A DNA stretch of 53,943 nt, from the NCBI GenBank assembly GCA_019309815.1, contig JAFDFO010000005.1:1-53943 (forward strand). Reading direction: 5' to 3'. Source of the stretch: Deltaproteobacteria bacterium. GTDB lineage: Bacteria > Desulfobacterota > Desulfobacteria > Desulfobacterales > C00003060. Below are positions 30,044 to 53,943 of this stretch, one piece after another. The translations under genes and the position numbers were made by a program. The notes beneath the pieces are model-generated. The model did no database searches. It worked only from the letters and a program-made list of their open reading frames with translations, and was not told the origin of the DNA. Positions within the stretch are counted from its first letter, which is position 1. Each line of letters opens with the position of its first letter.

Positions 30044-30070
30044 CAAAATCCCCTTATTCGCACTGTGTGG

Positions 30071-31761: not shown

Positions 31762-31839
31762 TGGGTGCGCTACTTGAAGTGGGAGTTTGCGACAAACTGC
31801 CCTTTGGCTTAACAGCAAATTTTGGAAGAGAGTTGGCCA

Positions 31840-33459: not shown

Positions 33460-34847
33460 GAGTATTACTAGTTAGGGCAAGACCCACCAAGGTGGAGAAT
33501 ACGAGACTTCCGAAAAGTCTATCATCGGAGGTGGGATATGTTATGCCGCTCGGGCTTGCCTCCATCGCTGCATATTTGCGTGGAAAAGGCGTTTCAGTGG
33601 GTATCATAGATGCTGAGGCAGAAGAACTTTCAATTGATCAAGTCAAGAGGAAGATGGCGAGAATCGGGCCGGACATAGTCGGCATAACCAGTATGACGCC
33701 AACAGTTCATGATGACCTTGCGGTGGCCAGGGCATCTCATGAACTCGGAATCAAGGTTGTCATGGGTGGCCCCCAAATAAATGCTATGCCCGAAGAGACC
33801 ATGCAGTTTAAGTTCGTCGATTTTGCCGTGCGTGGCGAAGGCGAATATCCCATGTTGAAGATAATTCAGGCGATTGACAATGAATTGCCCTTTAGTGATG
33901 TTCCTGGGATTGTCTACAGGGACGAGGATGGCAGGGTTATAATGACGCCTCCATTCATTCATGATGATCTTGATGAGTTGCCGCCTCCAGCAAGGGACCT
34001 TTTACCCCATGAGCGTTATGCGGCCATCATTGCCAGGGGCAGACTGACCACGCTTTGCCCGGGGAGAGGGTGTCCTTTCAGGTGTGGCTTCTGCTTTAAG
34101 CAGCCATCGGACCGAAAGATTCGATTTAGAAGTCCGGAAGTGGTTGCAGATGAAATGGAAGAAGTCATAGACAGGTATGGGATACAAGAAATCAATTTTG
34201 TTTCGGATACATTCACCCTCAAGAAGAGTTTTGTGGAGGGGTTATGTGAAGAGTTGCTGAGTAGAGGCACAAAAGTGTCGTGGATTGCTCCTACAAGAGT
34301 TGATTCTGTCACGCCTGCATTACTTGGACTGATGAAAAAGGCGGGCTGTAGAAGTTTGAGGTTCGGCATCGAGAGTGGTTCGGAAAAGATACTAAGACTC
34401 ATGAACAAGGATACCAATAAGGAATATACCCTTCAAGTCTTCAGGTGGGCAAAGGAGGTGGGGCTTGAGACCTTTGCATACCTTATAATAGGGTACTTGC
34501 ATGAAACAGAGAAAGAAATAAAAGAGACTCTGGCTTTTGTTAAAGAACTAAAACCGGATTTACTCATGTATAATGCTGCGACCCCCCTTCCCAAAACAAG
34601 ATTGTTCGAGCAAGCTGTGGAGGCAGGGATCGTCGAGAAGGACTATTGGGGGAAGTTCCTGTTGGATGAAAACTATCCGAGAATCCCCTATTTAATGAAG
34701 GATACACAGAAGTGGATAGATAAAGCTTATCGCGACTTCTTCTTTTCGCCGCGATTTCTGTTCAAGAAGATGATAGAATTCCGAGGAAAGAATATTAGGA
34801 ATTATTTCAAGGCAGCCAGAGGAATAGTTGGACTCAGGAAACAATGA
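33456..34847 (+). CDS. B12-binding-domain radical SAM enzyme
   Basis: PGRGCPFRCGFC. ATG 33456 forms an ATGA overlap with the upstream stop. Confidence 0.8.
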   Translation: MRVLLVRARPTKVENTRLPKSLSSEVGYVMPLGLASIAAYLRGKGVSVGIIDAEAEELSIDQVKRKMARIGPDIVGITSMTPTVHDDLAVARASHELGIKVVMGGPQINAMPEETMQFKFVDFAVRGEGEYPMLKIIQAIDNELPFSDVPGIVYRDEDGRVIMTPPFIHDDLDELPPPARDLLPHERYAAIIARGRLTTLCPGRGCPFRCGFCFKQPSDRKIRFRSPEVVADEMEEVIDRYGIQEINFVSDTFTLKKSFVEGLCEELLSRGTKVSWIAPTRVDSVTPALLGLMKKAGCRSLRFGIESGSEKILRLMNKDTNKEYTLQVFRWAKEVGLETFAYLIIGYLHETEKEIKETLAFVKELKPDLLMYNAATPLPKTRLFEQAVEAGIVEKDYWGKFLLDENYPRIPYLMKDTQKWIDKAYRDFFFSPRFLFKKMIEFRGKNIRNYFKAARGIVGLRKQ

Positions 34848-35389
34848 GTATTACCCAGAAGAAACGTGCCAAGATAATTGCAGATGCTTACAGGAATTGG
34901 GGCGCAGAAGGGAAGAAGGCCCTGGATGTTGGGTGTGGAAATGGTGTGGTATCAGATGTCTTGGTCGCAGAGCTTGGATTGAACCTGTGTGGCACTGACA
35001 TAATTGACTATCGAACGACGAACATTCCCTTTAAACAAATGGAAAATCCAGCTGAACTTCCTTTCGATGACCTGTCCTTTGATTTTGTCATGTTCAACGA
35101 TGTTTTGCACCATTCGGAACACATAGAATCACTGATTCTGGAAGGAAAAAGGGTTGGACACGCACTCCTGATGTTTGAAGACAAACAGAGTTTTCTATTA
35201 ACGATCGTTGACGTCGTGTTAAATCATATTTATTCCTCGAGGATGCCGGTTCCCCTAAACTTCAAAACCAGAGAAGAGTGGTGCTTGCTGTTTGACAAGC
35301 TCGGTCTTGAGTGGGAGGTGGGGGAGGTCTCGTATCCGTTTTGGTATCCCTTTCAGCATTTTGCCTTCAGATTGGTCAAGCGAATATGA
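34844..35389 (+). CDS. Class I SAM-dependent methyltransferase
   Basis: ALDVGCGNGV motif I, 181 aa, ATGA overlaps at both ends. Confidence 0.75.
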   Translation: MSITQKKRAKIIADAYRNWGAEGKKALDVGCGNGVVSDVLVAELGLNLCGTDIIDYRTTNIPFKQMENPAELPFDDLSFDFVMFNDVLHHSEHIESLILEGKRVGHALLMFEDKQSFLLTIVDVVLNHIYSSRMPVPLNFKTREEWCLLFDKLGLEWEVGEVSYPFWYPFQHFAFRLVKRI

Positions 35390-37551: not shown

Positions 37552-37599
37552 GTGGGATTGGGCCGAAAGTCTCAGAAACACCCTGGCCAAGAAATTTGT

Positions 37600-38352
37600 A
37601 TGTTCAGAGACAGCAAAGTAATCGTGGTCATGCCGGCGTACAATGCGGCCAAGACACTGCGCAAGACCTATGAAGAGGTGATGGCTCAGGAGATAGTGGA
37701 CCTGATCGTTGTGGTTGACGACGGGAGCATGGATGAGACTGTCTCTATTGCCAAGACTTTACAGCACACGATTGTCTACACCCATGACAGGAACAGAGGC
37801 TATGGTGCCAACCAAAAATCATGTTACAAACTGGCCCTGGAACAGGGTGCCGACATTATCATCATGGTCCATCCGGACTATCAATATACCCCGAAGCTGA
37901 TCCCATCCATGGCGGGCATGATCGGAAATGGTCTTCATCCATGTGTGCTGGGTTCCAGAATTCTCGGGGGGTATGCCCTGAAGGGCGGAATGCCTATTTG
38001 GAAATATGTATCGAATCGATTTCTTACCTTTGTCGAAAACATGTTTCTGGGGGCCAAGCTCTCAGAATACCATACGGGATACAGGGCCTTTTCCAGGGAA
38101 CTGATACAGCGCTTACCACTTCAAGTGAATTCTGATGATTTTCTGTTTGACAATCAGATGCTCGCACAGATCCTGTGGTTCGGTTATACGGTTGCCGAGA
38201 TCAGCTGTCCAACCAAGTATACTGCGGAGTCTTCAACGATTAATTTATATCGGAGCATTAAGTATGGTTTTGGATGTTTGTTCACGGGCCTGATATTTCG
38301 TCTCGCTAAAATGAAGATCATGAATTCGAAGTTGTTCCCTGACGCTAGGTAG
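37600..38352 (+). CDS. GT2 glycosyltransferase (CsbB/GtrB-like)
   Basis: VIVVMPAYNAAKTL ... VVVDDGSMDET ... HPDYQY. Start set at ATG 37600. Confidence 0.8.
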   Translation: MFRDSKVIVVMPAYNAAKTLRKTYEEVMAQEIVDLIVVVDDGSMDETVSIAKTLQHTIVYTHDRNRGYGANQKSCYKLALEQGADIIIMVHPDYQYTPKLIPSMAGMIGNGLHPCVLGSRILGGYALKGGMPIWKYVSNRFLTFVENMFLGAKLSEYHTGYRAFSRELIQRLPLQVNSDDFLFDNQMLAQILWFGYTVAEISCPTKYTAESSTINLYRSIKYGFGCLFTGLIFRLAKMKIMNSKLFPDAR

Positions 38353-41468: not shown

Positions 41469-43499
41469 ATGCAAGATCAATCCAACGCACACCGTGTCGT
41501 TATTGCACTAGGCCTTGTCGGGTCGTTACTGGCGTTTTGGCCCGTTCTGACAACGCCATTTCGTAGTGATGAATGGTACATAGCCAACTTTGCTCTACAT
41601 TCTCGACTCTCTGTTGAAACAATAGCTCAGGCCTCTTCTTGGGAGCTCTTTGGTGATCCCAGATTTCAGCCATTTTCCCACCTGCTGCTCTTCCTGATCC
41701 ACAAGGTGTTTGGGGATGCATTTGTTCTGTTTCACCTCTTGAGTTGGATTTCCCACATAGTGGTTGGGCTTCTTATCTACGCCATCGTCCGAGAGCTGCA
41801 TGATGATAAGATGACAGCCTCACTCTGCGCCGTTTTGTTCATCACTGGCTTCAGCCACTTTGATGCGGTAAGTTGGACATATCATCTCTATATTATACAT
41901 CAAGCGATCTGCCTCCTTGTGGGATTCTGGATTGTCCTAAGAGACCCTCTGAAGCTGCGATGGTGGCAGGCACTGGCCGGTGGTATGGTGGTTGGGCTTG
42001 CCTGCTATTTTTACGAGGCAGCAATGGTTATTCCCGCCATGATTATGATCGTCGCGTTCCGCTCGCACTATATGCTGCAAAAGTCAGACTCTGGATCGAA
42101 ATCACGCAATTTGTTTATCTTCGCTCTCTGTGCAGTTGTTCTTTACGGTGGTTTCTTGGGCCTCTACTTGTCTCAAATGGGAGCTGAGGTATCGGGTCGC
42201 GTTGACCCTGGCCTATTCTCGGTAGCGGCCTTAAATACGTTGAAAGGGCTGTGGTGGCAGGGTGTGGTGGGTAACCTGGGGTTTGCTCCTCGACACACCA
42301 TTGGAGATTTGTTTTATCTCCAGGGCAGCGACTTAGGCATTGGGCCGATGTTTGCAATCATACTATTCTTCACCGCTCTCACAATTGGCTTGCGTTCACA
42401 GGGGTTGCAAATCCTCAGGCAAATGAAAAGTCACTGCTATCTGATTCTGATCTTGTTGGCGTGCGCTGTTAGCTATTATGGCATCATCGCCATGGGGCGG
42501 TTTAATCTCTATGTGGTCACGCAATCAAGATACTTTTACCTTCCGGATGTATTTTTGGTGTTGGCCTTTTCTTGGCCCATGGCTGCAGCTTGCTCGGTTC
42601 AGTCTGAAACGCCCGGTCAGAACAGCAAAGGCGGATGGCGTCGTTTTAGCACAGCGTTGATGCGTCCTCAGACCTGGGCAGTGTGTGCCGTCTGTATTGT
42701 GATTGCGCTTAATGGGTATCATGTGTTCAGAATGTGCGGGGAGATTGCGCGGATTGTGAGCCCGGTTAAGGCGTCAATTGATAACGTAAAACGCTTTAAT
42801 GAAATGTCTAGTGTGGAGAAACAATTGTACGTGGATTTTGTGCCACGCAATCTGGATGACAAATTGTTTGGCGGAACGCACATAGCACTTGAGACGTGTT
42901 TTGGCAACGCTGGAATCCTGACCCGTCATATTGGAAAGGCGGAGTACTTGTACAACGAGTCAGATGGTATCGTCCCTAATGCGGCATTTGGATCGCAAAA
43001 GGCCAACGCCAGGGATTTCACTCTTGAGTTCGACTACATGATGTGGGGTGACATAATTACTGTTGTCAATTCTCCTCAAAACACGTTTCGGATTCGTCGG
43101 TTGTCTCCGGCAGAGAACGAGCTTCTTCTTCGCTTGACCTACGTTGGTGAGGGTAGTCCGCAGGAGATCTACGTGGCGGCAAAACACCCCCGGCGCTATG
43201 TTTCTCATGTGGTGGTTCAGAAGCAGGGCGACCATGTATATGTGGTTGAAGAAGGCCGGTTGATTGCTGTCAAACCGGTCGGCCAGGGGGAAGTATTGTG
43301 GGATGATGACATGCTATTCTTGGGGGCGCGGGTGGTGTTTCCCCCTCAGTACTGCTACCTGGAAAATTTTTTCGCGTGTGTAGGAAAAGCAAAGTATGAC
43401 ATAGAAGGGATGGACGTGGGAGACGTCATTCCTGGTAGTGCTTTGCGGGCGCCCATACCTGCTCTCAATTCGGATCCTCTCTACTGGAGATTCGACTAA
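41469..43499 (+). CDS. Polytopic membrane protein, probable GT-C glycosyltransferase with a soluble C-terminal domain
   Basis: 676 aa. First-loop FRSDEWYI (acidic motif), about 11 TM segments and a roughly 250-aa C-terminal domain. Confidence 0.55.
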   Translation: MQDQSNAHRVVIALGLVGSLLAFWPVLTTPFRSDEWYIANFALHSRLSVETIAQASSWELFGDPRFQPFSHLLLFLIHKVFGDAFVLFHLLSWISHIVVGLLIYAIVRELHDDKMTASLCAVLFITGFSHFDAVSWTYHLYIIHQAICLLVGFWIVLRDPLKLRWWQALAGGMVVGLACYFYEAAMVIPAMIMIVAFRSHYMLQKSDSGSKSRNLFIFALCAVVLYGGFLGLYLSQMGAEVSGRVDPGLFSVAALNTLKGLWWQGVVGNLGFAPRHTIGDLFYLQGSDLGIGPMFAIILFFTALTIGLRSQGLQILRQMKSHCYLILILLACAVSYYGIIAMGRFNLYVVTQSRYFYLPDVFLVLAFSWPMAAACSVQSETPGQNSKGGWRRFSTALMRPQTWAVCAVCIVIALNGYHVFRMCGEIARIVSPVKASIDNVKRFNEMSSVEKQLYVDFVPRNLDDKLFGGTHIALETCFGNAGILTRHIGKAEYLYNESDGIVPNAAFGSQKANARDFTLEFDYMMWGDIITVVNSPQNTFRIRRLSPAENELLLRLTYVGEGSPQEIYVAAKHPRRYVSHVVVQKQGDHVYVVEEGRLIAVKPVGQGEVLWDDDMLFLGARVVFPPQYCYLENFFACVGKAKYDIEGMDVGDVIPGSALRAPIPALNSDPLYWRFD

Positions 43500-43544
43500 C
43501 AGCACTTGCTGGGCAAGCCCCTCTCTCCTCTTTTGTGTTGTTTC

Positions 43545-45494
43545 CTACTTTGCTTTTTCGGGTTTTGGTTGGGCTTGTTCAATTTGGGCAATCATTTCCT
43601 TGATCCTAGCGGCTTCCTGAGGGTCTTTTGTCAGACGCAAGGCATGTTCGAAACATCGTTTTGCCTCATCAGGCTTGTCGAGCAGACTTAAATAGAGGAT
43701 GCCCAGATTGTGGTATGCTTCCAAGAAGCCTGGTTCCAGCTCTATGACCTTTTCGTACTGACGTACCGCGCGGCCTACTTGCCCTGAGAGTGTATAGGCT
43801 CGGGCCAGGTTGAAAGAAGCTTCCTTGTGGTCCGGCTCCAACCGAACCACTATTTCAAACTCACTGATCGCCTTGAGGTACTCTCCTTTCTCGGCCAGCA
43901 TCAGGCCGAAGTTGTTTCGTGCACTTAGGTGGGATGGATTGATCGACAAGGCCTTCTGGAAGTCCTTGATGGCAAGATCGTTTTGCCCGAGGCGCACATA
44001 TGCCTCTCCTCGACCATAATAGGCGGACGCCTGATTAGGGTCCAGTTCGATAACCCTCTCAAACGCGGCAATGGCACGTTGGTAGCCCTTCTTGTGAAAA
44101 TATGCCACACCGACGTTTTGATGAGCTACAACATGTTCCGGTTTCAGAGCAATGGCTTGAGAAAGCTCAGCGAGAGCCTTGTCGTATTCTTCGATCTTTA
44201 TGTATGACGTTGCCAGGTTAGTCCGTGGACGGGCCTTGTGAGGAGATTTTCCTACGGTATCTTGCCAGAGTGTCAGGTCGTTTTGCCAGGTGCTGTTTCT
44301 CCGATATGCACTTACCGAGAAAATGAGGATCATGATGATCAATACCGTGGTGACTATTCTCACCCGTTTTTCCGAGATTACGAGTAATCCTACCAACACA
44401 AATACAAATCCTACTATAGGAAGATAGAGACGGTGTTCGAAGATAAAGTCAGGGAGCGGAACAATGGAAGAAGTTGGCAATAGGGTGACAAAGAACCAGA
44501 TGATCCCGAAAGCGATCAAGGGGGAAACCCTACGGACAAGAATTCCGAGGGCTACCACCGATATTATCAACAGAATGCTTGCCATCACCTCAGGTTCAAG
44601 CAATGACTCGGACAGGGGGAAGTCATAGTCAAGATTCTGTTCTACGGGGCACACCAACAGTCTTAGGTAGGTCACAATGACCTTTGTCTGAGTGAGAACA
44701 TAGGCGCCTGCGGGAGGGGGTTCATACAAGAGATTCTTGGTTACAAGGGGACTCATGTAGGCTAAGGCCGGGACAACGATCAGCAGGCAAAGGAAGGGGA
44801 GAGATCTCAGCATCACCCTGCTAAGTCTTTTTGAGAAGTTCTCGAAAAATACTATTTCGTACACGATAATCATAGCCGGCAGAGTGACCGCAGTTTCTTT
44901 GGTCATTGCGCATGCATAGGCTAAAAGACAGGAAATTACGTAGGAAGATGAAGGATCCAGCGAGAAGGACTGTCGCTCTCCATCACTGTCCAGTCGGAAT
45001 TTTACATACCAAGTGAGAGAGAGCAGATAGAAAAAAGCAGCCAGCGATTCCACTCTCTGCCAAACGTACGTTACAGCCTCGGTCTGAACCGGATGACTTA
45101 TGAAAATGAGCGCTGCCAGAAGGGCCAAGGCAGATTTGTGCTCAACAGGCTGATTCTTCAGGCGTGGGGTCCTGAGAGTTAGAAGAACGAGGCTGTAGCA
45201 GCAAATTGCAGACCCAATATGAATCATCAGATTAACGAGGTGATACCCTATGGTATTCCAGTGTCCGAAGAAGTAGTTGATGGCAAAGGTAAAAAATCCT
45301 ATCCATCGCGAAGGCGCAAAAACAACGATGCGGGCAAAGTTCAGAGGTTCTTTTAGGATGGGATTGTTCTGGATATAGATAAGGTCGTCAAAGACGAAAG
45401 GGACCCTCAGTGTGTTAGAATAGATGGCAGCACCCCAAATAGTTATACACACGATGGGAAGCCACTCAGTTTTTGATTCATACGTCTTCATCAT
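43545..45494 (-). CDS. TMTC-like membrane glycosyltransferase with C-terminal TPR repeats
   Basis: N-terminal VPFVFDDLIYIQNNP loop motif, about 10 TMs, then at least 6 TPR units (e.g. AIALKPEHVVAHQNVGVAYFHKKGYQRAIAAFERVIELDPNQASAYYGRGEAY). Confidence 0.75.
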   Translation of the reverse strand: MMKTYESKTEWLPIVCITIWGAAIYSNTLRVPFVFDDLIYIQNNPILKEPLNFARIVVFAPSRWIGFFTFAINYFFGHWNTIGYHLVNLMIHIGSAICCYSLVLLTLRTPRLKNQPVEHKSALALLAALIFISHPVQTEAVTYVWQRVESLAAFFYLLSLTWYVKFRLDSDGERQSFSLDPSSSYVISCLLAYACAMTKETAVTLPAMIIVYEIVFFENFSKRLSRVMLRSLPFLCLLIVVPALAYMSPLVTKNLLYEPPPAGAYVLTQTKVIVTYLRLLVCPVEQNLDYDFPLSESLLEPEVMASILLIISVVALGILVRRVSPLIAFGIIWFFVTLLPTSSIVPLPDFIFEHRLYLPIVGFVFVLVGLLVISEKRVRIVTTVLIIMILIFSVSAYRRNSTWQNDLTLWQDTVGKSPHKARPRTNLATSYIKIEEYDKALAELSQAIALKPEHVVAHQNVGVAYFHKKGYQRAIAAFERVIELDPNQASAYYGRGEAYVRLGQNDLAIKDFQKALSINPSHLSARNNFGLMLAEKGEYLKAISEFEIVVRLEPDHKEASFNLARAYTLSGQVGRAVRQYEKVIELEPGFLEAYHNLGILYLSLLDKPDEAKRCFEHALRLTKDPQEAARIKEMIAQIEQAQPKPEKAK

Positions 45495-45835
45495 ATCAAG
45501 GGAGGTAAATCAATGTTGACTCGTCAGGACAGACCAGTTTTGTCTGACTGGTTTTTTTGAACTGGACCGCCAGTACCGGATAGAACAGCGGGTCAACGAT
45601 AGTCTGAAAACGAGCTTTCACGACGTCTTCCCCGAATTCGAGATGCCTCCAGAGACAGGGTCGGCTGAGACAAAACAGAAGAAGTAGACAGCAGAGTTCA
45701 CCGGAAAGAGCTTCACGAATGGATGGAGTCGTTTGGTCTTCAGGCTCAACTTGAATCTACCGTCATTTTCTCGTCATGGCTGTGCCGATTCCCGGTATTC
45801 GCCCAAGATGCTTGTCTGTGCTCTCGTCTCAGCCC

Positions 45836-46696
45836 TTATTGGTTGAGAAGTGCTCTATGGTTCGTCAGCCGAATGTCCCTTTGTCTAACCAGTTCAAGAA
45901 CTTTGTCGTCTGTAAAGGCAGCAAGTTCTTCCTCCCTGAAAGACGGCCTGTCATAAATTAGACCAAGGGCGCCATCGTTGTAACCTGGGTGACACATCAG
46001 TTCATGGGTACCCGGTCTCAGAGATCTCAATATGTGAGTGAGATCATGAAGAGACATGGCTTCGCTGCAAGACAGGCCCCAGAAATGGTCGGTTGTGCTC
46101 AGTTTTGCCCGAACAACCCTTCTTCTCGACACCTTTCCAATCAAACCCAACACCAACAGGCCCCATCCTCTGATAGTAAGAAGCTGTCTTGCGCCGACCA
46201 GCTCGTCAGGGACTCGGACAAAGGGGACTTGGTGTTCTTGCATTAAGGTGAGCATCAACTTGAAAACGCGAGGAAGCATGTGCACGTGCTGATGGCTGTC
46301 CAGATGGCTGACCCTAAGACCAGCTTCCTGAACCTTCCTGATTTGTGCCGACATCTCGTCCTTAATGTCTTCTATGTGTACACGGTTCGCATAGATGCTT
46401 CTGATGACATGTACGTAGCTCCGTATGAATTCTCCCCCTTCAACGATTGGTGATAGTCTGTCATTTTTTGAACAAGGTTTTCCGACGGTAAGGGATAGGT
46501 GGACACCTATGTCCAAGTCGGGGTTCTCCTTCGCCAGTCCCACCGCATGCTGAAAGGCGGGCATGGTGGCAATCAGGCTTGCGGAAGTGATGATCCCGTT
46601 CTTGAACCCATCAGCAACACCCCTGTTGATGCCCTTGGTCAGTCCAAAATCATCAGCATTCACTATGAGCTTTGTCATGGGAGGTCTCTCAAACAA
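45836..46696 (-). CDS. YdjC/ChbG/HpnK/NaxD-family carbohydrate deacetylase
   Basis: LIVNADDFGLTKGINRGV N-terminal motif, HLDSHQHVH and 286 aa. Confidence 0.8.
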   Translation of the reverse strand: MFERPPMTKLIVNADDFGLTKGINRGVADGFKNGIITSASLIATMPAFQHAVGLAKENPDLDIGVHLSLTVGKPCSKNDRLSPIVEGGEFIRSYVHVIRSIYANRVHIEDIKDEMSAQIRKVQEAGLRVSHLDSHQHVHMLPRVFKLMLTLMQEHQVPFVRVPDELVGARQLLTIRGWGLLVLGLIGKVSRRRVVRAKLSTTDHFWGLSCSEAMSLHDLTHILRSLRPGTHELMCHPGYNDGALGLIYDRPSFREEELAAFTDDKVLELVRQRDIRLTNHRALLNQ

Positions 46697-46796
46697 TGCA
46701 AGAACCTATCTCAAAAACACGTTTAAGACGCCATGTTCCGGTTTTTTCGCCGCCTGTTCACTTAAGCCACAAACAAGCATGGAGAAACAAAAACAC

Positions 46797-46890
46797 CCGG
46801 AGTAATGGAGTACTGGAAAAGGATGAAAGAACAACTGCTTTTTCTTGTAACCACTACTCCAGTACTCCACTACTCCAATGTTTTTTCTGG
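46797..46890. repeat. Palindromic form of the TGGA/TCCA octamer repeat (18-bp stem, 42-nt loop) with flanking T-runs
   Basis: GGAGTAATGGAGTACTGG (46799-46816) pairs with CCAGTACTCCACTACTCC (46859-46876) with one mismatch. T6 follows on the + strand and T5 on the - strand. It lies inside the operon, between the radical SAM and deacetylase genes. Confidence 0.7.
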
Positions 46891-46939
46891 GTTCAGCAGT
46901 CGGGGCCCTAAAAGCTGATTCGCATCCTTGAGATGGGTT

Positions 46940-48379
46940 CTATGCAGTCAACTGGTACCGCAACATGGAATAAACTCCTACAGCGAGCTTTGCTACAGAT
47001 CCTGGTTTTCTCAAAGTCTTCAGGTAGCCCCACATTATTCTTGGCCTGAAGTAGAACTTTCTAAAGGCACGCTTGGCATAGACAACCAGCTCGTGTTTAG
47101 ACAGGCCCCTAGGGATAAAGACGGGATACCACATATTCATTTTCGACCAATCATCTTCAAGTTTTCCGTACGTCTCTACAGTTTCGTACAGCTCACATCC
47201 AGGCAAAGGCGTAAAGAAAGTCGTCTGGAAATCGTCGAGAGGCAATTCCAACATGAATCGAATGGTATCTTCCATTGTCTTCCGGGTCTCAAGAGGTGAA
47301 CCAATCATGAAAAAACCTTTTGTCTGGATTCCTGCTTGGCGGGTTATGGTCAAGGCGCTTCTTATCTGTTGCAGGGTGATGCCTTTTCTAAGCACATCCA
47401 GAATCTTTTGGTTGCCACTCTCTATTCCATATGCGATCTGCCAACATCCAGCCTCGGCCATGAGCTTTAGCGTTGCCATGTCCACGATGTCGACTCGCGC
47501 ATTACAAGCCCACGTCAGACCAAGCCCGGATGCCGACAGTAGTTCACAGAATTTGGCGAGTCTCGGTTTAAACATGATGAAATTGTCGTCATCGAACAAA
47601 ATGTCGCGAATGTGATATCTATCGTAGAGTTCCTTGACCATTTCAAACAGGTAGTCTGCACTAAAGCCTCGACAAACATTCCCGAAAACGGTCCTGTCGC
47701 AAAACGTGCACTTGCCGGAGCATCCCCTGGAAGTAATGAGAGATGTGGAAGGTAGTTGACTGTAACTGAGGGATACCGGTTTGTAGAAATGTCTTAGTTC
47801 CGGGAGTAAATCCCACGCCGGAATGGGCAACTCATCCAAGTTAGTGATAGGCTTTCTTTTCCTGTTTTGACAGATTCGATGGTTGTCCCTGAATAGAACA
47901 CCCTTGACACTGCTGAGGTCACCGCGAGCCCAAAGCGTGTGTAAGAGTTCAGTGATCGTGTGTTCGCCCTCACCGATGACACCCAAATCAAAACCACCGT
48001 ACAGTTCCATTGTGGGAACAGGGACTGCCGTTACATGTGGCCCCCCGATAATCACCTCTTTGGCAGAATCTCGCTGTTTTATCAGGTCGGCAATCCTGGC
48101 GGCACTCTGGATAGAAACCGTTGAGGCTGTGATTCCAATGACACGAGGATTATGTGAGAATACTTCTTGGACCACCTCGCTGTGACTTAATCCCAGAGGA
48201 CTGGAATCAACGATGGCGGTCGAGAATCCCTCATTGCGGCAGACAGAAGCCAGGTGACAAAGGCCCAACGGCGGTGCCAAGCTCCCGCTTGAAGAGAGTT
48301 TCCCGTATCTTTCTGTCAAGCTGATGGGCGGATTGATAAATACGATATCTGTCTCAGACATACTACTTGTCTTTCCCAA
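46940..48379 (-). CDS. B12-binding-domain radical SAM enzyme (HpnJ-like size and architecture)
   Basis: TSRGCSGKCTFC, an N-terminal B12-binding-like domain and 479 aa. Overlaps the upstream GT2 by 17 nt. Confidence 0.8.
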   Translation of the reverse strand: MGKTSSMSETDIVFINPPISLTERYGKLSSSGSLAPPLGLCHLASVCRNEGFSTAIVDSSPLGLSHSEVVQEVFSHNPRVIGITASTVSIQSAARIADLIKQRDSAKEVIIGGPHVTAVPVPTMELYGGFDLGVIGEGEHTITELLHTLWARGDLSSVKGVLFRDNHRICQNRKRKPITNLDELPIPAWDLLPELRHFYKPVSLSYSQLPSTSLITSRGCSGKCTFCDRTVFGNVCRGFSADYLFEMVKELYDRYHIRDILFDDDNFIMFKPRLAKFCELLSASGLGLTWACNARVDIVDMATLKLMAEAGCWQIAYGIESGNQKILDVLRKGITLQQIRSALTITRQAGIQTKGFFMIGSPLETRKTMEDTIRFMLELPLDDFQTTFFTPLPGCELYETVETYGKLEDDWSKMNMWYPVFIPRGLSKHELVVYAKRAFRKFYFRPRIMWGYLKTLRKPGSVAKLAVGVYSMLRYQLTA

Positions 48380-49142
48380 TACGGTAACGCCCCAGGATAT
48401 CGTTAAGGCGAATTTTGACTAAATCAAACAAGTAATACAGAGAATGAGGAAAGAGCCTGACCGATGACCGCTCCCCGTCATAATAAAAGGTCACAGGGAC
48501 TTCAACGTACCGATAACCAAGCTTTTCCGCGAGGAAAAGTATCTCGACATCGAAGCAGAAGCCCTTAATACGCTGCAACCGGAAAACTTCTGTCGCTGCT
48601 TCCCGGCGGAAGCATTTATAGCCGCACTGGGTGTCCGTGAATCTTGGGAGCACAATCATTTTGGTGAATAAGTTAAAGCTTAGCCCAACAAGATGGCGCA
48701 AATATACATAGGGCAAGTGCCTGGGGCTCATGACAAACCGCGAGCTGTTCAATCTTCTGTTGCCCACAGCGATGTCAAATTTACCTCCCAGCAAGGGGAC
48801 CAAGAAATCATTTAAGGATGACACAGCGTAAGCACCATCAGCGTCCATGACGAGTATGAACTTTCCTGAGGAGGCCATAATACCTTTTTTGACAGAGTAT
48901 CCTTTTCCTGAATTGCTACTATTCCGGATAATACGAATCGGGTAGGATTCATTGAACTGAACGAGTACCTTGTATGTGGAGTCCGTGCTTGCGTCGTCAA
49001 CCACTATGATCTCGGCGTTGTAGTTCTGCCGTTCCAAGTAATACTTGATGTCTTGGAGCAATACCCCTACGTTTGCCTCTTCATTAAATGCCGGGAGAAC
49101 CACGGATAGCAGAATGTCTTCGGATTCGGACTTCGCTTGCAT
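48363..49142 (-). CDS. GT2 polyprenyl-phosphate glycosyltransferase (Dpm1/ALG5/GtrB-like)
   Basis: LSVVLPAFNEEANV, VVDDASTDST, MDADG, TQCGYKCF and FDVEILF. Confidence 0.8.
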   Translation of the reverse strand: MQAKSESEDILLSVVLPAFNEEANVGVLLQDIKYYLERQNYNAEIIVVDDASTDSTYKVLVQFNESYPIRIIRNSSNSGKGYSVKKGIMASSGKFILVMDADGAYAVSSLNDFLVPLLGGKFDIAVGNRRLNSSRFVMSPRHLPYVYLRHLVGLSFNLFTKMIVLPRFTDTQCGYKCFRREAATEVFRLQRIKGFCFDVEILFLAEKLGYRYVEVPVTFYYDGERSSVRLFPHSLYYLFDLVKIRLNDILGRYRIGKDK

Positions 49143-49150
49143 GTCGTTGT

Positions 49151-49843
49151 TTATCTCGATGGAGAGTCGTTAGTTGTTTGACTCTTAGTACAGACCAGCA
49201 ATGTGTCTGCAAAGGGGGTCCTGTGCCACATGGGTAGGGCATCTACGAAGAAGCCAAGCCCTTCAAGGTAATTTGTCAATTCAGCGAAACTCCTGAAGCA
49301 AAGCATCTCTCCTTTGGTGAAGCCTGATCGTGTCATGATGGTTTCGTGGAATCTTGTAACGAAATGGCGAAATTTCTTGTCCTTGTTCGAGTCTCTCAGA
49401 AGAAGTCTTCCTCCGGGACCGATGCGTTCATAGCATTTCTTAAGTAGCCTGTTTTGGTCAGGCACGGGGAAATAGTGAAGTGTGTCAATGAGGAGTATGC
49501 AATTGCATCTGTCAAAGGTGTATTGGAGAAGGTCCGAATACTCAAAAGCCACGTTGTGAATATGTGCTGAAGCGAATTGTGCTGCCCGCAATCTCCGGTG
49601 TGAAATGTCAACCCCTCTTACCTGTCTTGCCTGTGATAGAAGCGCCAAATATACAGTGAGCATCCCAAAGCCACACCCCAGGTCCACTATCTGTCCGGAA
49701 GTGGGGACGTGCTTTTCCATGACTTGATAGGAAGAAAGGCGTAATCTGAGATAAACGAACAGGCGCTCCACCGGGCTGATAGGCGCATGCTTATAATGCC
49801 CGTATAGAGTCATTATGCTTGTCTGGCTGATCAATTTTTCCAT
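49151..49843 (-). CDS. Class I SAM-dependent methyltransferase
   Basis: IVDLGCGFGMLT motif I. Start placed at ATG 49843 (GGAG upstream); the track start 49921 is a TTG. Overlaps the upstream gene. Confidence 0.65.
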   Translation of the reverse strand: MEKLISQTSIMTLYGHYKHAPISPVERLFVYLRLRLSSYQVMEKHVPTSGQIVDLGCGFGMLTVYLALLSQARQVRGVDISHRRLRAAQFASAHIHNVAFEYSDLLQYTFDRCNCILLIDTLHYFPVPDQNRLLKKCYERIGPGGRLLLRDSNKDKKFRHFVTRFHETIMTRSGFTKGEMLCFRSFAELTNYLEGLGFFVDALPMWHRTPFADTLLVCTKSQTTNDSPSR

Positions 49844-51161
49844 GGGCTCCGTCTGAAGGATGTCTTGTTTCAATTGGAAAAGGTGCGAAGGCAAAATACA
49901 ACCAAAGAACCAATAGGGCAAAGAACTGAAGAGAAAAAATGTGTACCTGCGGTCCCCTCATGTAGATCGTGAAGATATCCATGTCCAGAAATTTGCCTGC
50001 TGGTAAAGGATACCAAACTGCAAGCATTCCGTAGGCAGCACCCAGGGGGAAGATCCACCTTGTGACTGGTTTGTTTTGGAAGAGTTCATGAACTAATACC
50101 GCAAGAGGAATCAACAGCATTACGAGATAAGGGGTCGATGTCATCTTACTCGTCAGCAGCATGGTCAGGACGACAAGGGAATACTCTCGCAGGTTCCGAT
50201 CATCCGAATGATCATATCTTTTGCGGGTTACGTAAAACAGAAAGAAAAGCATGAGCGCAGAGCTTACGAAAATGGCGATTTGGGCAGTGCCCGGACTGTT
50301 GAACATTCCCTTTGTCCATACCGAATGGACCAGGAATCGGCTGAAGAAGCCTGTCAGAGCATGATTGTCATGATAAGCGTTAAACAGATCCTGGTTCCCC
50401 ATAAACTTGAAGTACCAGACATAGAGGTCGACATCAAAAAAGAGCAAGGAATAGAGCGTGATCAATAACAACAGAATGAGCCCTGAAAAAAATGCCCTAT
50501 ATTGACGTTTCCACAACATGTAGGCCAACAGAAGCCCTGGGATGATCTTTATCATGGTTGCCAAGGCAAGGGCGATGCCCGCATAAACACCTTTATTTGC
50601 TCTGTAAAAATACAGTCCCGCGGCGATAAGAAAGAACAGGAGAGTGTTGCATTGCCCAACGAGGTAATCCATGAATAGTGGCGTGAAGTTCATACACACG
50701 AAGATCAGCGTTATCCATTCGACCCATGAGTATCGATCCTTGATGGCTTTTATCAGAAGAATGAGACCGAAGAAGAAAAAGATGTGGTTCAACAGAATCC
50801 AGAACAAGGACGCCTGCTTGAAACTGAGACAAGCCAATGGACTCAGAAGGATCACAAATCCGGGAGGATACACATAGGGATTGGGCCCCTTATAGTCGAA
50901 AATGCCTTCCTGGAAGAATCGGATCATGTGATCGTATATAGGCAGCCCGTGCTTGAACGCCATCGCCGCGTTGTAATAAGCCACAAAGTCGACTTTTTCG
51001 GTGGAAAGCGGGCGAAATAGACCGTTGTATAGGTAGTTAAATGCCGTAAATCCCAATAGGAGAAAAAACAGTATCCGCGCATGTTCCCACACCCACCTGT
51101 CCGAGGGATCTCTTGCAATCTCTATTCCGAAGATGGTCATTTTGTGCAATTCCGAGGTCAT
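49791..51161 (-). CDS. GT87/DUF2029-type polyprenyl-phosphate-sugar-dependent membrane glycosyltransferase (PimE-like)
   Basis: First-loop DFVAYYNAAMAFKHGLPIYD and about 11 TMs. Start uncertain (ATG 51161 or 51140); the track start 51383 would overlap the upstream gene by 200 nt. Confidence 0.65.
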   Translation of the reverse strand: MTSELHKMTIFGIEIARDPSDRWVWEHARILFFLLLGFTAFNYLYNGLFRPLSTEKVDFVAYYNAAMAFKHGLPIYDHMIRFFQEGIFDYKGPNPYVYPPGFVILLSPLACLSFKQASLFWILLNHIFFFFGLILLIKAIKDRYSWVEWITLIFVCMNFTPLFMDYLVGQCNTLLFFLIAAGLYFYRANKGVYAGIALALATMIKIIPGLLLAYMLWKRQYRAFFSGLILLLLITLYSLLFFDVDLYVWYFKFMGNQDLFNAYHDNHALTGFFSRFLVHSVWTKGMFNSPGTAQIAIFVSSALMLFFLFYVTRKRYDHSDDRNLREYSLVVLTMLLTSKMTSTPYLVMLLIPLAVLVHELFQNKPVTRWIFPLGAAYGMLAVWYPLPAGKFLDMDIFTIYMRGPQVHIFSLQFFALLVLWLYFAFAPFPIETRHPSDGAHGKIDQPDKHNDSIRAL

Positions 51162-51175
51162 TGGGAGAAACCGGG

Positions 51176-53479
51176 TTATGACGGTCTTCGTTTCCTGCTG
51201 AATATGATGAGGCCTACAATAATTCCGACTACAGACATAAAGGACACAACTGTTCCGGCTTTGAAGCTCGAGGGGCTGAATACAAAGCGGACATGATGCC
51301 TCCCGGGCTCCAGGGACACGGTTCGAAACAAGTAGTTCCCCGTCAAAAGGGTCCTCTTCTTGCCGTTGACATAGGCCTGCCATCCCGGGTAGTTGATTTC
51401 GCTCATGACCAGGAAGCCCGGCGTATTCAGTTTGGCGTCAACGCTTATCTCATCACACGCATAGGAAAGGACCCGGCACATCTCCCCATGGTCTCCACGG
51501 TCTTCTCCGCCCGCAGTTTCAGGAACGTCCGGCGCGCTGCTGAAGACGACCATCTTCATGGGATCAAATTCGTCTCCCATCATATAGTCGAGGGTCTCAT
51601 GGTCATCCTTCACAACAGCTTGGTGAACAATGTGGGCCCTCGGAACAAAGGCCTTTCTTTCCGTGAGTTCAGCGGAAGCACAATCGACCACATATTTGAG
51701 ATTTAGCATGTTGATCAGAGGATTGTCCACGCTTCTTATGTAGTGCATGTTCACAACTTTGTTGTCCGCAGGGATTTGCTGGCTCTTGTTCACATATTGC
51801 ACATACCGTTTCAATATTAAAGGATCATAACCCTGGATATCCTGGAATTGATGCAGGAGCCCGGCATTTTCAGGAAAGCAACCGTTGCTCACTACAGCTC
51901 GGTAGACATCACGATCCAGTTTGAGCTGCCGGGTCAGATACGCTTGTTTCGGGGAAGGTTCAAGATGAACAGTTCGGATTAACGGGAATGCAAACGACCC
52001 CATGTCTGCCACGGAAATCAGTATTAGCAGGCTGCCTGTCGTTGCATAAGACGGGAGACCCTTGCGGTAAAGGAAGAATAGAATAACGATGATAAGAAAG
52101 ATGCCGGTGCCCCTCAAAATTGCACTTGTCACGACCGTGTGCACCTGGCCGATTTGATCGATGGTGAGTCCAGTCGGTTTGGAGAGCTTGAAAAGGACGT
52201 AGAAGAAACTGTATGGGTGAACATGACTCCAGACCGCCAGGACCAGAAGAAATGATAGACCAGCAAGGACAACCATACGGGGCATTCCGGAAAAAACAGT
52301 CCCGTTTGTAAGATGGTTCAGACCCATACCGGCAAGCACCGCTACTGCAAAGACATATAGAAAAAGGATTTGAGCAGGTATACGAAAATGGTGAAACCCA
52401 GGAAGATAGTAAATGAACCTGTAAAGAGGATTATATTTTCCAAGCGATAGAAACAAGGCAAGCACAAGCAATAGAACGAAGAACATACCTGCACGATCTG
52501 CCACAATCCTTCTGATAGCGACGACCATTAGCACTAAAGCACATATGCCTGTATACCCACAGTACTCCCAAAACGTCCAACTCGCATCGCTTATCCAGAA
52601 AGTTTTATTTCCGGGCACGCCGTAAAGATCCGGAATAAGAAACGTCATGAAGTTTTTTGGGGGGAAAGAATCGATAGTGGCGAATTCGTAGCTGGTGCCC
52701 CCTGCACGGGTAGAGAGCTGCATGAATTCATAAGTCGGTAAGAGTTGCAGAGCGGCCAAACAGAATCCAATAACAAGAATCGCCCCCATGCCGATTGCGG
52801 CCCATGCAACGTATTGGCCACTTCTTCGTTGCGGTCCGAGACACACAGAATAAAGGGCGTACAGAAGTGCCCCGAGGATCGTGTAAAAGGCGATTTGTGG
52901 AAAACCGCCCAAGATTTGAACCCCGAGAAAGGTGCCTGCTAGGATGGCGTGTTTCGGCCGCGGTGTGCTCAAAAACTTGTGCAGATAGAAGAATACAAGG
53001 GGTATCCAGACGTAGCTGTGGATAAGGGTCAAATGTCCAGCATAAAGATGAGCCATCAAGAATCCATTGTACGAAAAAATCGTGGCGGACAGCAGAGCCC
53101 CCATTTTGTTGACAGAAAGAGAGCGGACAAAAACGTACATGAACAGGGAGCCCAGGATGAAATGCAATATGATGGTATAGCCGTAAGCAACTCCTGTGGG
53201 CAGCACGTAAAAAAGGAAATCGAGTGGATAAAACATGGAGGCTTGAATATTGGCAATAAAAGGTTTGCCTGAGAAAACGTAAGGATTCCAAAAGGGAAGC
53301 GTCCCGGCAGACCACACATGGTCATGTAGGAATCTCTTCCAGGGGTAGAACTGGAGAACAAAATCAGAGCCGAAAAGTGGGTTCCCTGAAAGGATAATCT
53401 TCGCGAAAAAAAACAAGACGGACAGGATAAGCAGGGAAATAGGAACAATCTCCGACAGAAGACCGCTACTTCTTGACAT
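51176..53479 (-). CDS. YfhO-family GT-C membrane glycosyltransferase
   Basis: GSDFVLQFYPWKRFLHDHVWSAGTLPFWNPYVFSGKPF. C-terminal NYPGWQAYVNGKK...GRHHVRFVF beta-domain and a terminal TM. Confidence 0.75.
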   Translation of the reverse strand: MSRSSGLLSEIVPISLLILSVLFFFAKIILSGNPLFGSDFVLQFYPWKRFLHDHVWSAGTLPFWNPYVFSGKPFIANIQASMFYPLDFLFYVLPTGVAYGYTIILHFILGSLFMYVFVRSLSVNKMGALLSATIFSYNGFLMAHLYAGHLTLIHSYVWIPLVFFYLHKFLSTPRPKHAILAGTFLGVQILGGFPQIAFYTILGALLYALYSVCLGPQRRSGQYVAWAAIGMGAILVIGFCLAALQLLPTYEFMQLSTRAGGTSYEFATIDSFPPKNFMTFLIPDLYGVPGNKTFWISDASWTFWEYCGYTGICALVLMVVAIRRIVADRAGMFFVLLLVLALFLSLGKYNPLYRFIYYLPGFHHFRIPAQILFLYVFAVAVLAGMGLNHLTNGTVFSGMPRMVVLAGLSFLLVLAVWSHVHPYSFFYVLFKLSKPTGLTIDQIGQVHTVVTSAILRGTGIFLIIVILFFLYRKGLPSYATTGSLLILISVADMGSFAFPLIRTVHLEPSPKQAYLTRQLKLDRDVYRAVVSNGCFPENAGLLHQFQDIQGYDPLILKRYVQYVNKSQQIPADNKVVNMHYIRSVDNPLINMLNLKYVVDCASAELTERKAFVPRAHIVHQAVVKDDHETLDYMMGDEFDPMKMVVFSSAPDVPETAGGEDRGDHGEMCRVLSYACDEISVDAKLNTPGFLVMSEINYPGWQAYVNGKKRTLLTGNYLFRTVSLEPGRHHVRFVFSPSSFKAGTVVSFMSVVGIIVGLIIFSRKRRPS

Positions 53480-53667
53480 GATGTGAATATCCTATCCGTT
53501 GTGACGTCAGCATGAACAGCGACCTAAATTCATCGGTGCCTCAGAACGGTGCCTACTTGTACATCAATGGGTCTGCGGCTTGTCAACTGCGTACAAACAG
53601 GATGATTGACGGTAAGATCATCATCAAGACTCTCTCCTCAAGGCACAGACACCTGAACAAGAACAGA

Positions 53668-53943
53668 TCACTTCTGGTGTTTCAGTACAATGACTAATGG
53701 AGTAGTAAACGGAATTGGAATCAGATTCAAAGCATTGATCAAGCCTGTTTTTTCCAAGAAGTAGTAAAAGGGGAGGAAATATCTCTGTCTTCTGGCAAAC
53801 CCCGCCTCGCGAAGTCTTTGGAAGCTTTCCAGGACCACGCCCCTTTCAAATTTGATGTCCAAAGCGCATGACTTGCAGGCACGCCGAAGTTTTCGTGCCG
53901 TTACAAAATTCAATCCACCCCACAATGGAGAATGCTTAAGACT
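53668..53943 (-). CDS. Possible 3' end of a gene entering from the right edge; function unknown
   Basis: The frame is open to the window edge (..SLKHSPLWGGLNFVTARKLRRACKSCALDIKFERGVV..). Its last 20 codons run through an octamer-repeat copy at 53696-53722, so the true stop and the reality of the ORF are doubtful. Confidence 0.25.
   Translation of the reverse strand, partial: SLKHSPLWGGLNFVTARKLRRACKSCALDIKFERGVVLESFQRLREAGFARRQRYFLPFYYFLEKTGLINALNLIPIPFTTPLVIVLKHQK
53696..53722. repeat. Short copy of the TGGA-N4 repeat family
   Basis: aaTGGAgtagtaaacggaatTGGAatc resembles the reverse complement of 2898-2938 (caatTGGAataaTGGAatatTGGAgtga). Confidence 0.45.

Follow-up and report, generated by a model that had tools for sequence, protein, structure and literature searches.

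A conserved GT2, radical SAM, YdjC and methyltransferase gene cassette from uncultivated bacteria, probably an extended form of three-component periplasmic glycosylation

Introduction

A GT2 glycosyltransferase, a B12-binding radical S-adenosylmethionine (SAM) enzyme and a YdjC-family deacetylase are encoded next to one another, between positions 45836 and 49142, on a 53,943-nucleotide stretch of contig JAFDFO010000005.1 from a deltaproteobacterial genome of the Desulfobacterota (GCA_019309815.1). We refer to this whole stretch as the window. What might three such enzymes make together, and on which carrier? An initial annotation saw in them a mixture of the FlmF2-NaxD-FlmK and HpnI-HpnJ-HpnK pathways, and proposed a deacetylated, radically rearranged and possibly carbocyclic amino sugar, built on polyprenyl phosphate and transferred by adjacent membrane glycosyltransferases of the C fold (GT-C).

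In this study, we find the three genes to be part of a larger cassette, comprising the GT2, the YdjC protein, the class-B radical SAM enzyme, a class-I SAM-dependent methyltransferase and a GT-C, which is conserved across phyla and is found in part as fused proteins. On balance, we regard this cassette as probably an extended three-component periplasmic glycosylation system. A wider proposal is more tentative, and we hold it at slightly less than an even chance: that the large radical SAM subfamily represented here carries out radical tailoring (C-alkylation or other) on polyprenyl-phosphate sugars that a Dpm1-like GT2 has made and that a GT-C has yet to transfer. For the members linked to YdjC, the substrate would be a freshly deacetylated amino sugar, and the product an envelope amino sugar of a new kind, modified at both carbon and nitrogen.

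Conserved gene order and gene fusions

Checking the open reading frames (ORFs) placed the three genes, all on the minus strand, where the initial annotation had put them, with the motifs it had described: TQCGYKCF and FDVEILF in the GT2, CSGKCTFC in the radical SAM enzyme and VNADDFGLTKG in the YdjC protein. The methyltransferase, GT87 and YfhO genes that it had reported upstream of these three were confirmed by Pfam. The cassette genes of the window are as follows.

48363..49142, minus strand: Dpm1/GtrB/ArnC-type GT2 of 259 amino acids (PF00535, 92.6 bits), predicted polyprenyl-phosphate N-acetylhexosamine (HexNAc) synthase
46940..48361, minus strand: class-B (B12-binding) radical SAM enzyme of 473 amino acids from the ATG at 48361 (PF02310 and PF04055), predicted to tailor a lipid-linked amino sugar
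45836..46678, minus strand: YdjC-family deacetylase of 280 amino acids from the ATG at 46678 (PF04794, 234 bits), predicted polyprenyl-phosphate-HexNAc N-deacetylase
49151..49843 (ORF to 49921, start uncertain), minus strand: class-I SAM methyltransferase (Methyltransf_25/23/12/11), predicted to N- or O-methylate the same sugar
49791..51161 (likely ATG at 51161, ORF to 51383), minus strand: GT87-family GT-C (PF09594, 119.5 bits)

The radical SAM family is large, with more than 5000 homologues at E<=1e-20, and many of its members are proteins of about 700 amino acids in which the radical SAM enzyme is fused to a class-I methyltransferase. Homologues at approximately 45-55% identity come from Omnitrophota, Elusimicrobiota, Desulfobacterota, Nitrospirota, Planctomycetota and metagenome-assembled genomes (MAGs) of DPANN-type archaea. 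The order GT87, methyltransferase, GT2, radical SAM, YdjC is retained in two loci, L005 and L006, whose radical SAM enzymes are 66-77% identical to that of the window. Four Omnitrophota genomes (L019, L028, L032 and L034) have the order GT2, methyltransferase, radical SAM, YdjC, and in L019 and L032 these make up two fused ORFs, GT2-methyltransferase (449 amino acids) and B12-radical SAM-YdjC (757 amino acids), both confirmed by Pfam. In L019, the fusion genes are followed directly by two GT-C genes of the PMT_2 family, in a cluster with GT4, Wzy_C and WecG.

A search with the fusion protein identified radical SAM-YdjC fusions of 721-771 amino acids in 18 independent protein clusters, as well as one triple fusion, B12-radical SAM-YdjC-methyltransferase, of 953 amino acids. 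The surroundings of such fusions repeat the same set of functions. A single 6-kb contig (L093) carries a GT2, radical SAM-YdjC-methyltransferase and a PMT_2 protein; L094 carries PMT_2, GT2, radical SAM-YdjC, methyltransferase and PMT_2; and in L095, Wzm/Wzt and glycosyltransferase genes accompany a GT2 and radical SAM-YdjC, with the methyltransferase and PMT_2 a few genes beyond. The cassettes of L095 and L019 both sit within O-antigen-type clusters, and the PMT_2 proteins of the cassettes are mutual orthologues at 30-45% identity. Domains homologous to the window methyltransferase are fused to GT2 (L019 and L032), to radical SAM enzymes (L004, P0047 and others) and to radical SAM-YdjC (P0256).

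Taken together, the fusions GT2-methyltransferase, methyltransferase-radical SAM, radical SAM-YdjC and radical SAM-YdjC-methyltransferase tie four predicted cytoplasmic activities into one pathway, and the constant GT-C partner ties that pathway to what would be an extracytoplasmic transfer. That the three genes first noticed are linked, and syntenic elsewhere, is therefore borne out by the fused proteins of other lineages, whose genes have that of a PMT_2 GT-C immediately after them or a short distance away. Calling them a trio drew the unit too small, since the fusions show that the class-I methyltransferase belongs to it. We regard the domain identities, the synteny and the fusions as established.

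It might be objected that these genes are chance neighbours, without a common substrate, in a crowded glycan island. The window holds four B12-radical SAM enzymes, two SPASM radical SAM enzymes, at least three Dpm1-like GT2s and 8-10 GT-C-like proteins, and adjacency alone is weak evidence in such a setting. However, every adjacent pair is fused somewhere, in independent lineages, and the gene order is kept across phyla. The fusions refute this reading, to which we give practically no credence.

Neighbours were counted by seed-only phmmer searches with domain coordinates at 57 loci whose sequence extends for 3 kb or more to either side of the radical SAM gene; the searches were not iterated, so that all counts are lower bounds. 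Where the radical SAM identity was at least 40% (28 loci), a Dpm1-like GT2 lay within 3 kb at 21 loci, a methyltransferase within 3 kb at 13, a GT-C within 6 kb at 16 and a YdjC gene within 1.5 kb at 6. Below 40% identity (29 loci), the corresponding counts were 13, 7, 4 and 0.

Trees were built by bootstrapped neighbour joining (NJ), a weak method. In the radical SAM tree, the window, L005 and L006 form a clade with 100% support, and the YdjC-linked enzymes of Omnitrophota form another with 98%. The smallest clade holding both YdjC-linked groups comprises about 20 of the 63 taxa, mostly without YdjC, and excludes HpnJ and the three other B12-radical SAM enzymes of the window in 100 of 100 bootstraps. 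In the YdjC tree, the fused Omnitrophota type stands apart from the window type, which lies nearer to HpnK-like sequences. Thus, YdjC would have been either recruited twice to this radical SAM subfamily or lost from it repeatedly, and either history points to a functional link.

One of the loci with a fusion gene, L094 (JBGVSQ010000172.1), is labelled Candidatus Lokiarchaeia archaeon and has the whole cassette on an 11-kb contig, its fusion protein being 42% identical to the Omnitrophota query. Its assignment to the Asgard archaea reflects either horizontal transfer or a binning error.

Identity of the enzymes

Besides the motifs given above, the GT2 (48363-49142) has its DAD motif within the sequence VMDADGA. 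Its top sequences in the Protein Data Bank (PDB) are the dolichyl-phosphate-mannose (Dol-P-Man) synthase of P. furiosus (5mlz; 67 bits over residues 10-223), GtrB (5ekp) and ArnC, while its best NCBIfam models are AglJ, PpgS and a haloarchaeal Dol-P-hexose transferase, all scoring far under their equivalog cutoffs. No HpnI family was among its NCBIfam matches at E<=1e-3, and a BLASTP comparison with the annotated HpnI of Paraburkholderia graminis gave no detectable similarity (E=0.061). With Dol-P-Man synthase, GtrB and ArnC as its best solved relatives, the protein is by homology a Dpm1/GtrB/ArnC-type polyprenyl-phosphate glycosyltransferase, with a predicted lipid acceptor, as the initial annotation had argued in preferring this assignment over HpnI.

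The YdjC protein matches PF04794 at 234.2 bits (cutoff 29.7), and scores 185.4 bits on HpnK (TIGR03473; cutoff 232.6) and 179.2 bits on ChbG (cutoff 227). All of 68 aligned relatives keep its catalytic residues D16, H66 and H135, its best PDB match is the chitooligosaccharide deacetylase 7vi8, and its N-terminus has neither a signal peptide nor a transmembrane segment. These data make it a member of the PF04794 carbohydrate deacetylases, with deacetylation as its predicted activity. Its nearest relatives outside the clade are at most 42% identical, and are found for example in a Terriglobia locus (L088, DASTAW010000029.1, 6669-12890) that encodes PMT_2, LPG_synthase_TM (HpnL-like), YdjC and GT2 proteins and adjoins a squalene/phytoene synthase gene, without any radical SAM gene. 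This could be an arrangement of the HpnI/K/L or the NaxD type, and it is an instance of a YdjC and GT2 pair without the radical step.

The radical SAM enzyme has a strong match to the B12-binding domain (PF02310, 73.7 bits) and also matches the Radical_SAM domain (PF04055, 70.6 bits). The cluster motif CSGKCTFC follows the CxxxCxxC pattern, and its cysteines (C214, C218 and C221) are invariant in 39 homologues. Judged by these features, it is a class-B (cobalamin-binding) radical SAM enzyme, and cobalamin binding is predicted.

Its top NCBIfam match is nominally HpnJ (TIGR03471), at 207.8 bits against a cutoff of 577.6, with BchE (180 bits) and ApyD (177 bits) close behind; as a positive control, the annotated HpnJ from a P. 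graminis plasmid scored 843.2 bits on the same model. In BLASTP, this true HpnJ and the window enzyme share 29% identity, which is the level also seen for the window's own radical SAM paralogues and for a BchE-level relative. In the Omnitrophota fusion protein, the BchE model even scores above the HpnJ model. The top match might have suggested orthology to HpnJ, but we reject this because the control scores so much higher, because BchE and ApyD score almost as well, and because of the bootstrapped tree. The specific kinship to HpnJ supposed in the initial annotation is not supported either, with 29% identity, a score well below half the cutoff and HpnJ outside the subfamily in every bootstrap.

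This bears directly on a ring contraction of the HpnJ kind, which would yield a carbocyclic (cyclitol-type) amino sugar on polyprenyl phosphate for subsequent transfer by a GT-C. Apart from the nominal top match, such a reaction finds support in the order of a deacetylase and then a B12-radical SAM enzyme, which mirrors HpnK and then HpnJ acting on a lipid-linked N-acetylglucosamine (GlcNAc) unit (PMC13459092), in the radical SAM-YdjC fusions, with two activities on one substrate, and in OxsB, a class-B radical SAM enzyme able to contract rings (PMC12931638). We nevertheless consider it improbable. The scores and identities place HpnJ at the level of a paralogue and, on chemical grounds, the anomeric carbon would end up in the carbocycle, bound through an ether, and polyprenyl phosphate could then not serve as a leaving group. 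The GT-C, the most constant downstream partner of the cassette, would thereby lose its activated glycosyl-phosphate donor. A carbocycle followed by GT-C transfer is therefore the least coherent version of the pathway, and the carbocyclic sugar suggested at first is left unsupported.

A bona fide hopanoid pathway, in which HpnI, HpnK and HpnJ would make the glucosamine (GlcN) and cyclitol ether forms of bacteriohopanetetrol (BHT), is less probable still, to the point that we hardly credit it. In its favour, the YdjC protein comes near the HpnK cutoff, HpnJ is the top radical SAM match, and the nearest YdjC outgroup has the HpnL-YdjC-GT2 loci beside a squalene/phytoene synthase gene in Terriglobia. 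Against it stand a GT2 without similarity to HpnI, a radical SAM score far under both the HpnJ cutoff and the control, and the fused Omnitrophota cassettes in O-antigen-type clusters with GT-C genes. Further, a Pfam scan that covered almost every ORF of 150 amino acids or more in the window (the remainder lying inside larger annotated genes) revealed no squalene-hopene cyclase, no HpnH-like family and none of the hpnG or hpnC-E kind. The caution of the initial annotation towards a plain hopanoid assignment was therefore justified, both by the negative scoring against the HpnI, HpnJ and HpnK models and by the 54-kb window having no match of the shc or hpnH type; the distinction from HpnIJK we likewise regard as established.

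Which reaction, then, would the radical SAM enzyme catalyse? Its AlphaFold2 model has a predicted local distance difference test (pLDDT) score of 93, and Foldseek returned AprD4 first, followed by MgmA, TsrM, OxsB, CysS and TokK, with template modelling (TM) scores of 0.66-0.77 normalised to the query. AprD4 is the top match among solved structures by sequence (97 bits) as well as by fold (TM 0.72-0.75). It is a 1,2-diol dehydratase that acts on the GlcN ring of paromamine, and as nearest solved relative of a predicted enzyme and its model it fits an amino-sugar substrate. On the other hand, most characterised class-B radical SAM enzymes are methyltransferases, largely C-methyltransferases, and the enzymes that truly depend on B12 are listed as having no relationship to AprD4 (PMC12931638). 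Because most characterised class-B enzymes C-methylate and the B12-binding domain is strong here, we favour C-methylation, rank an AprD4-like or other non-methylating reaction second and place an HpnJ-like contraction last.

The second of these would have the enzyme dehydrate a lipid-linked amino sugar by a radical route, in the manner of AprD4, or change it in another non-methylating way such as epimerisation or oxidation, to give a deoxy or keto sugar. The agreement of sequence and fold on AprD4 is its best argument and keeps it, in our view, a possible if rather unlikely reading. It has to contend with the strong B12-binding match of an enzyme whose nearest solved relative stands apart from the B12-dependent ones, with the preponderance of methyltransferases among characterised class-B enzymes, and with the cassettes themselves, in which no AprD3-like reductase is conserved.

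For the class-I methyltransferase, the best PDB matches are phosphoethanolamine N-methyltransferases. These matches are weak (43 bits), and give a weak hint of methylation at an amine.

Proposed pathway

We propose the following scheme, in which we infer which lipid serves as carrier, which sugar it bears, how the steps are ordered, what the radical SAM enzyme does and what the acceptor is. At the cytoplasmic face of the membrane, the GT2 would move an N-acetylhexosamine from its uridine diphosphate (UDP) sugar onto polyprenyl phosphate. YdjC would then strip off the acetyl group, as NaxD does on undecaprenyl-phosphate N-acetylgalactosamine (Und-P-GalNAc) and HpnK on BHT-GlcNAc. The B12-radical SAM enzyme would alter the amino sugar, still lipid-linked, at an unactivated carbon, most likely by C-methylation, and the class-I methyltransferase would put on a second methyl group, plausibly at the freed amine. 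The tailored polyprenyl-phosphate sugar would be flipped across the membrane, where a GT-C would deliver it to an envelope glycan or protein; in the window this is most likely the GT87 protein, and in Omnitrophota the dedicated PMT_2 protein.

Radical SAM and methyltransferase enzymes use cytoplasmic SAM and reductant, and GT-C enzymes work outside the membrane. Considering this, together with the lack of export signals, tailoring would precede flipping. The ArnC/ArnD/ArnT and FlmF2/NaxD/FlmK systems are precedents for modifying a lipid-linked sugar, and in the HpnI/HpnK/HpnJ pathway, too, the modified GlcNAc unit is lipid-linked (PMC13459092). Such carrier-lipid logic had been proposed for the three genes at the outset, and it is strengthened by the fusions and by the recurring GT-C partner.

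An alternative would shift the tailoring to the nucleotide-sugar stage, with a UDP-HexNAc modified in the cytosol and the finished sugar then loaded by the GT2 on a carrier or glycan. Most known sugar tailoring takes place on nucleoside diphosphate (NDP) sugars, and the window does encode an epimerase/dehydratase, an HldE-like kinase/cytidylyltransferase, a SIS isomerase and thiamine pyrophosphate (TPP)-dependent E1 subunits; the fusions would fit either stage. Yet NaxD and HpnK deacetylate after transfer to the lipid (Und-P-GalNAc and lipid-linked GlcNAc, respectively), the GT2-methyltransferase fusion sets the methyltransferase on a membrane-associated synthase, and a Dpm1-type GT2 would need to take a heavily modified UDP-sugar. 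We therefore judge this order of events unlikely.

Several observations weigh against tailoring at the lipid-linked stage by one uniform pathway. The GT2s of the two cassette types, that of the window and that of the Omnitrophota fusions, are only about 25% identical, and the two YdjC-linked radical SAM clades are never exclusive sisters; the products of the two cassette types may therefore differ. Most members of the radical SAM subfamily have no adjacent YdjC gene, so that a free amine would not be a general requirement of the radical step. With 8-10 GT-C-like proteins in the island, the cognate GT-C of the window cassette is uncertain. No flippase of the GtrA (PF04138), SMR or ArnE/F-like type was among the scanned window ORFs, ORFs below approximately 150 amino acids not having been scanned systematically. 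Finally, all carriers of the cassette are uncultivated MAGs, and the pathway is proposed from their sequences. In L005, a GtrA_DPMS_TM gene lies approximately 9 kb upstream of the cassette.

Comparison with known systems

The closest parallels of the proposed pathway lie in systems that modify or transfer a lipid-linked sugar. FlmF2-NaxD-FlmK of Francisella and LgmA-LgmC-LgmB of Bordetella, which modify lipid A with an amino sugar, likewise combine a Dpm1/ArnC-type GT2, a YdjC deacetylase at the cytoplasmic face and an external GT-C, but have neither a radical SAM enzyme nor a methyltransferase; moreover, the GT87, YfhO and TPR-GT-C proteins (the last with tetratricopeptide repeats, TPRs) and the O-antigen-type context here argue against a role in lipid A only. 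In ArnC-ArnD-ArnE/F-ArnT, through which lipid A receives L-Ara4N, an N-acylated sugar is placed on undecaprenyl phosphate, de-acylated while lipid-linked, flipped and moved by a GT-C of the PMT_2/GT83 type, and ArnC is the best NCBIfam match of the Omnitrophota cassette GT2. The Arn deacylase ArnD, however, is a deformylase of the NodB type rather than a YdjC protein, and radical SAM or methyltransferase tailoring is absent from that pathway.

HpnI-HpnK-HpnJ shares with the cassette a glycosyltransferase (one that adds GlcNAc to a membrane lipid), a deacetylating YdjC protein and a B12-binding radical SAM enzyme acting on GlcN. It differs in that the GT2 here is unrelated to HpnI and the radical SAM enzyme lies outside the HpnJ clade, that the predicted lipid is polyprenyl phosphate and not a hopanoid, that a GT-C and a methyltransferase are part of the unit, and that the window offers no hopanoid context. 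A glycosylation step of the GtrA/GtrB/GtrC, CsbB/GtcA/YfhO or pentofuranose type (PMC11127046) resembles the cassette in joining a cytoplasmic GT2 polyprenyl-phosphate-sugar synthase to a GT-C that acts outside the cytoplasm on an already completed glycan, and is often embedded in O-antigen clusters. In the known three-component systems, the sugar is transferred as it was loaded, whereas the cassette would place three tailoring enzymes between synthesis and transfer.

A chemical parallel comes from aminoglycoside tailoring (GenK/GenD1, GenN-type enzymes and AprD4), in which a GlcNAc-derived unit is deacetylated, modified at unactivated carbons by (B12-)radical SAM enzymes and N-methylated by class-I methyltransferases. 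There, the substrates are soluble pseudo-oligosaccharides and the deacetylases belong to another family; GenK and GenD1 are likened to the cassette enzyme by chemistry, not by sequence.

To our knowledge, the only tailoring known for a donor sugar that is lipid-linked and awaits periplasmic transfer is the simple de-acylation seen in the Arn and NaxD/Lgm systems. The cassette may thus be an Arn/NaxD-type pathway plus two or three extra tailoring enzymes, with the radical chemistry as its new element. In the literature open to our search, which left out subscription-only papers, we found no paper joining radical SAM enzymes with polyprenyl-phosphate-sugar/GT-C systems; a paper on Elusimicrobia describes clustered B12-radical SAM genes, but in a nitrogenase-paralogue context. 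If the proposal is true, a B12-radical SAM step at the lipid-linked stage would be a new layer of chemistry in envelope glycan biosynthesis. It would also provide the first functional context for a large unannotated group of B12-radical SAM genes, abundant and often multi-copy in the glycan loci of uncultivated phyla. In practical terms, the fused minimal cassettes (GT2, radical SAM-YdjC-methyltransferase and PMT_2) make the pathway testable without culturing the source organisms.

Locus layout and neighbouring genes

Three further features flank or interrupt the cassette genes in the window.

51176..53479, minus strand: YfhO-family GT-C (PF09586, 79 bits), first gene of the co-directional run
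43545..45494, minus strand: TMTC-like protein of 649 amino acids, with a polytopic, GT-C-like N-domain (by motifs) and C-terminal TPRs (by Pfam)
46697..46939, no strand: spacer of 243 bp from the radical SAM stop to the ydjC ORF (261 bp to the ATG at 46678), with inverted repeats and a hairpin of TGGAGTAN units

Two of the gene starts needed attention. The radical SAM ORF spans 46940-48379 (479 amino acids), while the deposited protein MBW1858929.1 starts six codons later at the ATG at 48361 and has 473 amino acids. The ydjC ORF spans 45836-46696 (286 amino acids), and homologues of 280 amino acids suggest that the ATG at 46678 is its likely true start. The radical SAM ATG sits one base past the GT2 stop codon, and the two genes are therefore probably translationally coupled.

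The initial annotation had placed all these genes in the same operon. From 53479 down to 46940, they do form a contiguous run of overlapping or near-abutting genes; this continuity does not extend to ydjC, which is set off by the spacer, nor to the TPR protein (43545-45494), which lies a further 341 bp beyond ydjC. A promoter and terminator scan of 43000-53943 found sites no more numerous than in shuffled sequence and so did not inform the operon structure, and an Rfam scan of the same region gave no matches.

A 14-nt inverted repeat (46701-46714 and 46928-46941) encloses the spacer before ydjC, which has an inner inverted repeat at 46799-46817 and 46858-46876. Its hairpin is made of 8-nt TGGAGTAN units, with an RNA folding energy of -92.5 kcal/mol (z = -6.3). 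An array of the TGGAGTAN unit recurs at another intergenic spot of the window (6907-6966), and the motif has 6 matches where 0.48 are expected. Since the equivalent gap between the radical SAM and ydjC genes measures just 2 bp in L005 and 48 bp in L006, against 243 bp here, the spacer resembles an insertion. It is probably a small inserted repeat element similar to a miniature inverted-repeat transposable element (MITE) or a repetitive extragenic palindromic (REP) sequence, and it may split the operon.

Among the GT-C neighbours, the GT87 protein is the best conserved within the window's clade (56% identity in L005 and 72% in L006), and a YfhO homologue also lies upstream in L005. The protein encoded at 43545-45494 has FVFDD (a DD motif) after its first transmembrane segment, TKETAVT (KETxxT) and its TPRs at the C-terminus. 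In TMTCs, the first external loop bears the DD motif, and KET(Q)xxT is the second motif by which they are defined (PMC7801869); describing this downstream gene as TMTC-like was apt in view of these features. Pfam recognised only the TPRs of the protein, no Pfam GT-C model matching its N-domain, and a GT-C fold is predicted from the motifs; the similarity to a PMT_2 and TPR protein elsewhere in the window (12169-13923) is weak (25% identity over 231 amino acids, 54 bits). As to the suggestion that the adjacent GT-C proteins are the transferases, a GT-C partner does recur, but the best-conserved one is the upstream GT87 protein and not the downstream TPR protein.

The wider glycan island and other radical SAM loci

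The window as a whole is a large glycan island. Its four B12-radical SAM enzymes (28625-30160, 31822-33459, 33450-34847 and 46940-48379) are 21-32% identical to one another. They are accompanied by the two SPASM radical SAM enzymes, the Dpm1-like GT2s, two class-I methyltransferases and the GT-C-like membrane proteins, the latter of the PMT_2, YfhO, GT87 and TPR-GT-C kinds.

A second module, built on a similar logic but without YdjC, lies on the plus strand at 31822-38352. It comprises the B12-radical SAM genes 31822-33459 and 33450-34847, a class-I methyltransferase (34844-35389), a YfhO GT-C (35311-37551) and a Dpm1-like GT2 (37552-38352), after which two more GT-C genes follow. At its head, also on the plus strand, are two adjacent ORFs, 30690-31217 (175 amino acids) and 31225-31761 (178 amino acids), each with several hydrophobic segments, a soluble C-terminal part and no Pfam match. 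They are speculative candidates for a flippase-type component. The remaining B12-radical SAM gene (28625-30160, minus strand) is the first in a series of genes for large membrane proteins, and its best model is the ladderane-type lipid radical SAM family TIGR04072, at 114 bits far under the cutoff.

A sugar-nucleotide block on the plus strand (13937-22150) encodes an epimerase/dehydratase, an HldE-like PfkB kinase-cytidylyltransferase fusion, a GmhA-like SIS isomerase, the two SPASM-type radical SAM enzymes, TPP-dependent E1 alpha and beta subunits and a GT2. This suggests that a heptose-type or branched-chain sugar is made in the island.

Outside the window, B12-radical SAM enzymes 26-30% identical to the window enzyme are encoded on 27-kb plasmids of Lawsonia intracellularis (H1-H3) and on Solidesulfovibrio plasmids (H27 and H34), one plasmid of Solidesulfovibrio carbinolicus having five places that match. 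On an Azoarcus plasmid, the match adjoins acyl carrier protein (ACP) and ketoacyl-ACP synthase (KAS) genes. These plasmid matches show contexts unrelated to the cassette. Several B12-radical SAM copies also occur together in L004, L026 and L095, and, as an extreme case of this, in the MAG 'bacterium E14_metabat.bin.161' (L083, approximately 4800-17800), seven B12-radical SAM paralogues lie within about 13 kb beside a Dpm1-like GT2.

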